From NCBI GenBank assembly GCA_947085365.1, contig CAMTWD010000009.1, forward strand, positions 1 to 50,048: a stretch of DNA of 50,048 nt. The letters run 5' to 3'. Below the pieces are notes generated by a model. It was not told the DNA's origin and ran no database searches. It was given only the letters and a program-made list of their open reading frames with translations. Origin of the DNA: an uncultured Nitrospirota bacterium. Lineage in GTDB: Bacteria; Nitrospirota; Thermodesulfovibrionia; Thermodesulfovibrionales; CALJEL01. Each line of letters begins with the position of its first letter. The stretch's first letter is position 1. Made by a program: the position numbers and the translations under genes. Below are positions 45,302 through 47,043 of this stretch, in pieces.

Positions 45302-46987
45302 ATGAGTAATATATGCATAATGGCTAAAAAGAGTAAATCTAACAATAATTTGATTCTGTCTTACGAGTTAACCTTACCTCAGAGGATATACTGTCAGCTT
45401 GATAGACTTTTTATAGTATTTAAACATGGAGTTAGGACTTGTCTTGAGGTATTCTGGAATGAAGCAATTTTTAACCTTTTAGGGCAAGACAAACAACAGA
45501 AACAGTCAGCCTGTGCAGTATTGAAGTCATTGTTTCCAAATACTGGGATAAACCTGGGATATTTGCCAAGCCGTGTTTTAAGAAACATCTTAGAGCAAAC
45601 TGGAGAGATCATCAGAACCCAGGGTAACAGAAAAAAGATATTTGACTACATAGTAAAGGACCCTGAAGTCAGAGTCCAGGAGGACTCTAAGGTTATAGCT
45701 CAGCGATTAGGTGAAAGCACCTTAATGGTTTTAAATGTCCAGAGGCAGATTCAGAGGTTAATGAAAAAAGATGCATTGATAGCAGATTACTTCAAAGTTA
45801 CAAGACCTTCTTTTGATGGCAATGTTGTGATCACAACTGCTGATGATAATATAAAAACAGGGCAGTTCAAAAGACTGATCGTAGATCTTCAGAAGAATCT
45901 GGTCATTTTCAAAATTAAAGTTCCCGATAGAGGCACATGGAAGTGGATTAAAGTAAGACATTTTATCCCTGACAACTTAAAAGTGGCTCTGCTTACTGGG
46001 GGACAGGTTCAAGCTCCGCTAATTAAAAAAATCACTTTAAAAAGTGGATTTACTATTTACAAATTGGTAATACCAGTAGAATTTAAATTGAAATCCCTGG
46101 ATACAACTGTTTTAAGAGTTTTTTCAACAGATTTAAGTCCATCAGAGACCAGGCTTGCAGTAGCAGTGATAGTAGATAAAGAGGGATATTCCAGACCTGT
46201 TTTCTTTAAGGCCACCAGACTGATAAAAAAGATAGAACGAATCTTAACTGAAATAAGCCATTTAGAAGCTAAAATTGACAACATAAGGTTTCAGTTAACA
46301 TATACAATCAGTAAAACCCACAGGGATCTTCTTAAAGTGAGATTAAATCATCTATTTCAGGAACAGAAACTGAAGTGGTACAAAGTAAAAAACCTCAGAA
46401 AAGGGATTTTAGAGATTTTTACAAATGAAATTATAACACTGGCAAAAATTTACGGTTGCACTCACATAGCTATAGAGAATCTAAAATTTAAAAACTTACC
46501 TTCATGGAGAAACTCTAAATTCAGAAGACACTTTTCAGAGTGGTTCTACAGCAAAGTTGAAACAAAACTTGAATACAAAGCAAAAAAACATGGTTTAAGG
46601 TTTATTACAGTATCCAGCTATAAAAACTCCACAATTTGCCATAGTTGTGGTAAAGAGACAAAACCAGATGGACTAACTTTTGTCTGCTCTCACTGTGGTG
46701 AAAAATTTGATAGAGACTACAATGCCTCAGTCAACATAGGGATAAAGGCTTTGAACCAGCTTTTGAAAAAGAACAATAAAGATATAGTGGGCGGGACAAA
46801 ACCTGTGGTCTATATGACTGAGGGTAATCCCGGCAGGATTCCGTTTCGTCGGGGGCTCGCCCACTTTAAGGCTCCTCTTACAGTGTTTTCTCTTTTAACT
46901 CTCATGGCTTATATTAAAGTGGTGGAGATCTCCACTTTGAAGTTCAGAAATTTAACTAAATGGATAAGTTTGGATAAAAGCGGTTAG
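45302..46987 (+). CDS. TnpB/Cas12-like RNA-guided-endonuclease-family protein (IS200/IS605 OrfB type), solo, 561 aa
   Basis: Split RuvC: FSTDLSPS (D277), HIAIENLKF (E392), [11 protein letters not shown] (D470/D472). Zinc ribbon CHSCG...CSHCG between RuvC-II and RuvC-III. AT-rich, with codon composition unlike its neighbours. No tnpA is adjacent. Confidence 0.85.
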
Positions 46988-47043
46988 GAAAAATGAAACG
47001 GTATCAGATTTATGATACCCAAAATGAATCAGGAGGTGTAATT

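Follow-up and report, generated by a model that had tools for sequence, protein, structure and literature searches.

A probable omega-RNA scaffold overlaps the 3' end of a divergent tnpB gene in an element related to IS607 from an uncultured Nitrospirota bacterium

RESULTS

The inserted element and its site

The DNA analyzed here comprises positions 1 to 50,048 of contig CAMTWD010000009.1 (GenBank assembly GCA_947085365.1) from an uncultured Nitrospirota bacterium (Thermodesulfovibrionales; CALJEL01), and this whole stretch of 50,048 nt is referred to as the window. The host, whose assembly has a size of 1.5 Mb and a completeness of 91%, belongs to a little-studied hot-spring lineage. An element carrying tnpB is inserted between a DUF1015 gene and gap. 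It is designated the studied copy, all coordinates refer to the window, and the features of the locus are as follows.

45190..45193, plus strand: left-flank GGGG, which contains the crossover dinucleotide (GG) and an RGG motif resembling a TAM (20 of 21 family sites end in GG)
45194..47001, plus strand: whole inserted element of 1808 bp, with tnpB and without tnpA (empty sites, left- and right-end consensus of the family, G+C shift)
45194..45301, plus strand: left end, including the conserved motif AACAGC...TTGA and a site resembling a promoter (by-eye alignment of about 40 loci)
45302..46987, plus strand: tnpB-like ORF of 561 aa (probable start at 45320, 555 aa; profile matches, alignment, AF2 model)
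46787-46795:46856-46864, plus strand: P1, the outer helix enclosing the 5' module of the predicted scaffold (covariation, pairing)
46801..46825, plus strand: small stem-loop SLa (46801-04:46822-25 and 46808-10:46816-18; 99-100% paired, compensatory changes in 5 of 7 pairs)
46829..46853, plus strand: nexus hairpin (46829-34:46848-53; 94% paired), whose loop holds the 5' strand of a pseudoknot
46841..46847, plus strand: pseudoknot 5' strand CCGTTTC (7 of 7 bases pair with the element terminus, 46995-47001)
46865..46994, plus strand: variable middle and 3' part, with the palindrome at 46922-35 and a weak hairpin (alignment)
46988..47001, plus strand: right-end terminus past the stop codon, ending ...ACGG (the same 14-15 nt in 31 copies, after which the flanks diverge)
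47000..47019, plus strand: host-native hairpin at the 3' end of DUF1015, outside the element (present in empty sites G002-G005)
47002..47021, plus strand: predicted guide, consisting of host DNA from the gap leader and the 3' portion of the native hairpin (right-end boundary and IS607 omega-RNA organization)

DUF1015 and gap are adjacent, and the site is accordingly empty, in all five same-genus genomes, in four of which the hairpin GGTATC-N7-GATACC alone separates the two genes; the empty site reconstructed from the studied copy shows the same arrangement. The G+C content of the element amounts to 35.7%, compared with 44-46% in the flanks. Its boundary can be slid within a 7-bp identity, GGTATCA, at 45192-45198 and 47000-47006. 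By eye, the start of the left end in other copies does not resemble the right flank in this way. The possibility that GGTATCA represents a true target-site duplication of a DDE-type element was rejected, because 38 family copies end in ACGG and share only GG and because sister copies carry a serine recombinase. The hairpin at 47000-47019, the first GG of which now coincides with the right-end GG, had been counted in a first-pass annotation of this DNA as part of a guide RNA region; the hairpin is real, but it is host DNA rather than scaffold, since the same structure sits in element-free genomes of the genus.

The insertion is found at the identical place in contigs of four other metagenome runs (two studies, one hot-spring sample included), and no empty-site joint was seen in the contigs of these runs. 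Within its own 1.5-Mb assembly the tnpB gene is single copy, neither second element copies nor solo scaffolds were found in this genome, and no IS607 transposase scored above the cut-off in the 91%-complete assembly. The 50-kb window contains no CRISPR array or cas genes. None of the 40 relatives searched, the five of the same genus among them, contains a family-level tnpB homologue; only two genomes of the same order gave weak partial matches (E ~1e-6), which stem from distant TnpB-like genes.

Ends, transposase, and mobility of the family

The family set comprised 77 loci from genome and metagenome collections, with further copies from Aquificota genomes, 18 of 178 of which contain the tnpB family. 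In every copy with a 3' end, the stop codon is followed by a common stretch of 14-15 nt ending in ...ACGG and then by unrelated flanks, and the right end reads ACGG in 36 of 38 copies. At the other side, the left flank ends in GG at 20 of 21 distinct insertion sites, with A or G at position -3 in 18 of them; a C occupies flank position -3 at a single site (1/21), in contrast to the right end ...ACGG, which has C at this position. Copies that carry only tnpB start directly after the flank GG with the conserved left end containing AACAGC...TTGA, which in the studied copy includes the promoter-like site TTGACA-17-TATGCT at 45207-45235 (promoter scan score of 10/12). No terminal inverted repeats were detected between the left and right ends. 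The last 30 nt of the element hold repeated ATGG-like motifs.

In four sister copies (L022, L023, L028, and L032), tnpB is overlapped on its upstream side by a gene whose product, an IS607 transposase containing Resolvase and MerR HTH domains, scores 185 bits on NF033518 (cut-off, 110). As tnpA is missing here but present in these sisters, the studied copy is best regarded as a non-autonomous derivative, and sequence comparison places it as a non-autonomous member of the IS607 family. The first-pass annotation had read the locus in terms of IS200/IS605 elements, an assignment that has to be replaced in view of the serine recombinase of the sister copies. Mobility of the family is reflected by the variety of its flanks, of which at least 21 are distinct on the left and about 38 on the right, where nothing is conserved past ACGG; many contigs break inside the element, and internal-deletion derivatives in relatives retain both ends.

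A divergent TnpB

The ORF at 45302-46987, whose stop codon lies at 46985-87 and which the gene caller starts at 45320, encodes a divergent TnpB. The only Pfam match above its cut-off was PF07282 (Cas12f1-like TNB domain). The NCBIfam model NF040570 (guided_TnpB) gave 92.5 bits, below its 100-bit cut-off, the IS607_TnpB model NF038280 gave 48 bits compared with a cut-off of 350, and the Cas12f2 model aligned over residues 132-487 with 72.8 bits. Sequence identity to 23 homologues of 500-545 aa amounts to 42-54% at a query coverage of 93-98%, and the RuvC residues D277, E392, and D470 are invariant among them. Structural comparison of the AlphaFold2 model (mean pLDDT, 76.5) gave matches to Cas12f, TnpB, and Fanzor with Z scores of 14-16, which extend over residues 16-488, and none of the solved structures among these matches covers residues 493-561.

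A conserved RNA structure at the 3' end of tnpB

The search for conserved structure was based on an alignment (A2) of the terminal 330 nt from 27 non-redundant copies, and its RNAalifold consensus was then extended. Twenty-three pairs in five helices were 97.4% paired in A2, compared with 33-48% (maximum, 47.6%) when the 3' partners were slid by 1-3 columns. Compensatory changes were present in 15 of the 23 pairs, and none of 500 shuffles reached the observed values, a test that can be inflated by related sequences, whose relatedness the slid controls keep. The trimmed version of this alignment, A3, repeated the result with similar pairing and covariation. The first-pass annotation had proposed covariation across homologous elements as a check, and it was indeed found in P1, SLa, the nexus hairpin, and the pseudoknot.

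All six pairs of the P1 core (46790-95:46856-61) show compensatory changes, with 96% of the cells paired, and the arms of P1 occur in about nine different sequences, all of them complementary. The match between GTGGGCG (46787-93) and CGCCCAC (46858-64), which had been picked out from the single sequence, is real and lies in the register of this family-wide helix. The nexus stem and the pseudoknot were tallied in 40 distinct copies, for 38 of which the true right end was picked by script. Thirteen variants of the nexus stem were present among the 40 copies, with six of six pairs in 33 and five of six in the remaining 7. The pseudoknot is canonical at 7/7 positions in 31 of 38 copies and at 6/7 in 7 of 38, and its two strands vary in matched form (CCGTCCC:GGGACGG, CCGTTCC:GGAACGG, and TCGTCCC:GGGACGA). 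The combination CCGTTTC:GAAACGG occurs in the studied copy alone, which has thus undergone a double compensatory change, given that its relatives carry CCGTCCC:GGGACGG or CCGTTCC:GGAACGG. This pairing with the terminus of the element had been missed by the first-pass annotation. Even in a distant subfamily with a different, longer right end, the nexus stem is kept with compensatory changes, and its loop CCGTTCC is complementary to the subfamily's own terminus GGAACGG (both by eye). Since G.U cells outnumber A.C cells by 49 to 8, the structure is that of a plus-strand RNA in the sense of tnpB.

The stretch described earlier as locally GC-richer has a G+C content of 56% (46784-46867), compared with 35% for the remainder of the element. 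The 84-nt 5' module equals the unconstrained MFE fold (z = -3.76), and the whole 218 nt fold with z = -1.55. In the MFE structure of the studied copy, the 3' terminus has another partner (around 46883-90), which was discarded because it is not conserved.

In the part between the 5' module and the terminus (46865-46994), a search for consensus helices across the family yielded only low-complexity U-rich/A-rich pairings. Single copies do fold stems here, at non-homologous positions, and the hairpin 46952-57:46962-67 is 78% paired across the family. The long stem of the L022-group subfamily was dismissed as a family feature due to its absence outside that subfamily, and deletions of 24 and 51 nt are found in this region of the relatives L058 and L041. 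All five features listed in the first-pass annotation do occur in the DNA where it placed them. The palindrome GTGGAGATCTCCAC (46922-35), however, proved to be copy specific, as it is 50% paired in the family, no better than the slid controls, with only its two inner pairs conserved. The direct repeat CCACTTT at 46861 and 46932 is likewise present, but not conserved in relatives. The AATCC/GGATT hairpin (46826-40), which had been proposed as an inner stem, is a property of the studied copy only, with 61% pairing in the 27 copies, no compensatory change, and slid controls that perform equally; it is also incompatible with the supported nexus hairpin.

Rfam searches of 44800-47600 at permissive E-values returned no family match, only sub-threshold chance fragments of snoRNAs and introns. 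In comparison with the "three stem-loops" layout, the alignments establish only the first stem-loop and the pseudoknot, and the third hairpin is weak, with 78% pairing.

Coding overlap and selection

The helices from P1 to the nexus hairpin coincide with codons 495-519, and the rates of change (Nei-Gojobori) along the gene reflect this overlap. The value of dS is 1.64 in the body of the protein (residues 18-480), 0.17 over P1-nexus (495-519), and 1.03 in the tail (520-561), corresponding to dN/dS ratios of 0.13, 0.94, and 0.26, respectively; synonymous change is hence reduced about 10-fold over P1-nexus. Codon identity among aligned identical residues rises to 0.73-0.88 at residues 490-517, compared with about 0.45-0.55 along the gene, and the gap columns of A2 and A3 in the 3' part of tnpB are multiples of three (6, 15, and 24 nt). 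In the AlphaFold2 model, pLDDT values below 50 are located exactly at residues 493-521, followed by helices at 525-558. The suppressed dS, the dN/dS ratio of about 0.9, and the low pLDDT over P1-nexus lead to the conclusion that the amino acid sequence of a disordered linker is set by the RNA. Within the family, P510 is invariant.

The last 40 residues or so (520-561) are, by contrast, a genuine conserved helical segment under purifying selection. The earlier description of the whole C-terminal region as atypical is therefore correct for residues 493-521, which are disordered with a dN/dS of about 0.9, but not for residues 520-561. A conserved tail lacking synonymous constraint had been named in advance as evidence against a guide RNA at this place; the tail is conserved, but the constraint is present at the RNA core.

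DISCUSSION

Relationship to known systems

The closest parallel is offered by CboIStron, an IS607-family IStron of Clostridium botulinum, for which it has been reported that TnpA(S) requires a GG core dinucleotide, that a TGGG target/TAM is common to transposase and TnpB, that the omega-RNA scaffold ends in ...UCGG with a distinction of self from non-self at position -3, and that the nexus, which is the first stem-loop, base-pairs with the scaffold 3' end, as in Cas12 guides (Zedaveinyte et al., 10.1101/2023.11.20.567912). The studied element shares with it the serine-recombinase family, the GG core at both junctions without terminal inverted repeats or a target-site duplication, a predicted omega-RNA formed by the tnpB 3' end and the right end in which the nexus would pair with the scaffold 3' end, a putative guide in the right flank, and a scaffold terminus ..CGG combined with target-side motifs that are non-C at -3. 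Unlike CboIStron, it has no group I intron and no tnpA, its protein of 555-561 aa shows about 25-35% identity to typical TnpBs over RuvC-II/III only, the ORF spans the whole scaffold and stops 14 nt before the end of the element, the flank motif is RGG instead of TGGG, and the hosts are thermophiles.

ISDra2 TnpB (IS200/IS605; PDB 8exa, 8h1j) resembles the studied protein in its RuvC nuclease, with a fold match of Z 12.5-14.3 over residues 15-489, and in a scaffold that overlaps the 3' coding end, stops at the right end, and places a pseudoknot beside the guide. It differs in its Y1 transposase, single-stranded-DNA hairpin ends, TTGAT TAM, and shorter protein of 408 aa; the studied element lacks subterminal hairpins and encodes an extra C-terminal region of 70 residues outside the solved structures. 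The best structural matches of the protein are Cas12f sgRNA complexes (AsCas12f, 8dzj/8j12; Z 15-16), from which the locus is distinguished by the absence of a CRISPR array and cas genes and by a guide that would be set by the insertion site and not by spacers. As a tnpB-only element with intact family ends, it also resembles IS1341-type solo-tnpB elements and non-autonomous IS607 derivatives, but the link to IS607 is shown directly here by the tnpA-bearing sister copies. TnpBs are especially common in Aquificae, where several clades are linked to serine recombinases (survey PMC10691335), and no paper on the present TnpB clade was found in a literature search.

Proposed function and alternative explanations

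The central proposal of the first-pass annotation, namely that the tnpB 3' end and the right end encode an omega-RNA-like scaffold, is borne out by covariation, low synonymous change, the G.U bias, and the loss of homology past 47001. With high confidence, 46787-47001 is regarded as the omega-RNA (reRNA) scaffold for the element's own TnpB, and the element as a horizontally acquired, tnpA-less IS607 derivative. The scaffold would end at 47001, the homology boundary, instead of at 47020-47045 as formerly expected. Because homology between copies stops at ...ACGG (47001), the first position of the guide would be 47002, within the gap leader, in agreement with the earlier suggestion that this flanking DNA supplies it; its length of about 16-20 nt is assumed by analogy. 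Sequences in other parts of the genome that nearly match the predicted guide were rejected as targets and judged to be due to chance; they have 2-3 mismatches and lie in AT-rich DNA, and the one examined in detail lacks an adjacent GG.

The element would have integrated by a serine-recombinase crossover at the GG within the hairpin that separates DUF1015 from gap. Transcription of tnpB would then start at the left-end promoter (45207-45235) and run through the right end into the gap leader, and the 3' part of the transcript would fold into P1, SLa, and the nexus hairpin, the loop of which would form the pseudoknot with the 7 terminal nt of the element. TnpB would bind this scaffold and probably trim it, so that the 16-20 nt or so past 47001 would serve as the guide. 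The resulting complex would cut the empty site, in which the left flank ...RGG is joined to 47002 onward, and its own template would be spared by the C at position -3 (ACGG). In this genome such a homing role may be idle, given the single copy, the lack of an IS607 transposase in the assembly, and the lack of an empty-site variant in the four runs.

Four other explanations were considered. The structure lies wholly within the ORF and its 3' UTR and its middle part has no conserved fold, as might be expected of a cis-acting element of the tnpB mRNA that controls 3'-end stability, translation, or decay and never acts as a guide scaffold. This explanation is unlikely, because the pseudoknot joins the nexus loop to precisely the 7 terminal nt of the element, beside a fully variable flank, in a geometry that is the one of characterized TnpB/Cas12 guide RNAs, and there is no reason for a stability element to stop at a transposon boundary. 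The conservation might also reflect right-end DNA signals for binding or synapsis by the serine transposase. Transposition of IS607, however, proceeds via double-stranded DNA, and compensatory changes and the excess of G.U over A.C (49:8) fit a plus-strand RNA and not a protein-bound duplex, which makes DNA signals a very improbable cause, even though ATGG-like repeats are present in the last 30 nt and terminal bases of the right end are required for IS607 excision (10.1101/2023.11.20.567912). That the signal arises from coding constraint on a peptide (..IPGRxPxR..) with accidental helices is barely credible and already largely refuted. A few invariant residues such as P510 and the inflation of shuffle tests by relatedness speak in its favor, but dS is suppressed 10-fold at a dN/dS of about 0.94, the peptide is predicted to be disordered, the nine or so P1 sequences are all complementary, and pairing falls to 33-48% in the slid controls.

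The remaining explanation concerns the use of the scaffold. The element might be retained for a role linked to the host, in which the TnpB-omegaRNA complex would not serve as a homing nuclease but would, for example, bind or regulate the gap-pgk leader under RNA guidance or protect the junction from being lost. The grounds for this proposal are a single tnpA-less copy in all runs examined, with an intact ORF, a freshly compensated pseudoknot, and a guide matching the gap-pgk leader. A related proposal is that the C-terminal helical module, which is conserved, encoded inside the scaffold, and missing from solved TnpB/Cas12f structures, links translation to assembly of the RNP. Both proposals are considered quite unlikely.

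Significance

The arrangement as such is already known; it is found here in a little-studied hot-spring lineage, and the understanding of such systems is unchanged. What is gained is a model of the omega-RNA that is backed by covariation (P1, SLa, nexus, pseudoknot, ...ACGG) for a TnpB clade of thermophiles that is linked to serine recombinases, falls below the cut-offs of the NCBIfam models, is not covered by Rfam, and has a predicted TAM of the RGG type. We infer, as part of the best explanation, that the element reached this genome by horizontal transfer, which would represent a cross-phylum transfer from an Aquificota-centered family into a different order. The boundaries of a compact, probably heat-stable, predicted RNA-guided nuclease are now available. 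The locus also provides a clean case of dual coding, in which the RNA-constrained stretch is a disordered linker and the next 40 residues behave as normal protein.

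Insertion site and junctions

Insertion of the element has exchanged the C-terminus of the DUF1015 protein (window 45185-45210): the native end ...VSDL-stop, which lies inside the host-native hairpin GGTATC-N7-GATACC, is replaced by ...VSTAS-stop, which lies inside the element's left end, where the new stop codon overlaps a -35-like TTGACA. Owing to the element, the distance from DUF1015 to gap-pgk is now 1.8 kb, and gap-pgk is probably reliant on read-through from the element.

In the window, GGTATCA stands at both element junctions (45192-45198 and 47000-47006), an identity of 7 bp, and the junction identity in other copies of the family is GG only. 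The five extra bases are either a chance match, with a probability of about 1 in 1000, or the result of a serine recombinase having picked a target similar to its own RE-LE joint.

Among about 38 distinct insertion sites, 5 have a right flank that starts with ACGG, giving the junction sequence ACGGACGG (loci L007, L019, L029, L050/L114, and L128), which is far more common than expected by chance. Such flanks could have arisen where the element inserted into the end of a copy already in place, or could stem from a preference for certain targets.

Variation in the scaffold and element structure

The variable part of the predicted omega-RNA scaffold contains three mutually complementary segments, among which two alternative stems are possible; conservation of these segments is absent among relatives.

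Mutually complementary segments in the variable part of the window scaffold
46860-46868, forward strand: CCACTTTAA
46914-46922, forward strand: TTAAAGTGG
46932-46940, forward strand: CCACTTTGA

A second, more divergent subfamily occurs in Aquificota genomes (L098, L121, L122, L124, and L129), where the ORF stops about 35 nt ahead of a different right end, ...GGAACGG, and this terminus is complementary to the nexus loop CCGTTCC of the same subfamily; in L121, the terminus is mutated. Internal-deletion derivatives (L011, L013/L056, L038, L041, L046, and L054) have kept the left end together with the last 350 to 430 nt, i.e., the scaffold and the right end. They may represent miniature elements that are non-autonomous, or else guide-only remnants. 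At locus L027 (2610-3008), tnpA is reduced to a 132-aa remnant in which the MerR-type HTH is retained along with the C-terminal end and the catalytic resolvase core is lost; this is an intermediate towards the tnpA-less form found in the window.

Distribution and other TnpB-like genes

An unrelated second TnpB-like ORF (459-aa open frame; NF040570, 86 bits) is located on another contig of the window's own genome (G000:C52:464-1216) and was not picked up with the window protein as the query. Three family copies (L003, L007, and L009) come from short contigs whose bins are classified as DPANN archaea (Nanobdellati, Aenigmatarchaeota), a placement that reflects either mis-binning or a cross-domain spread of the family.
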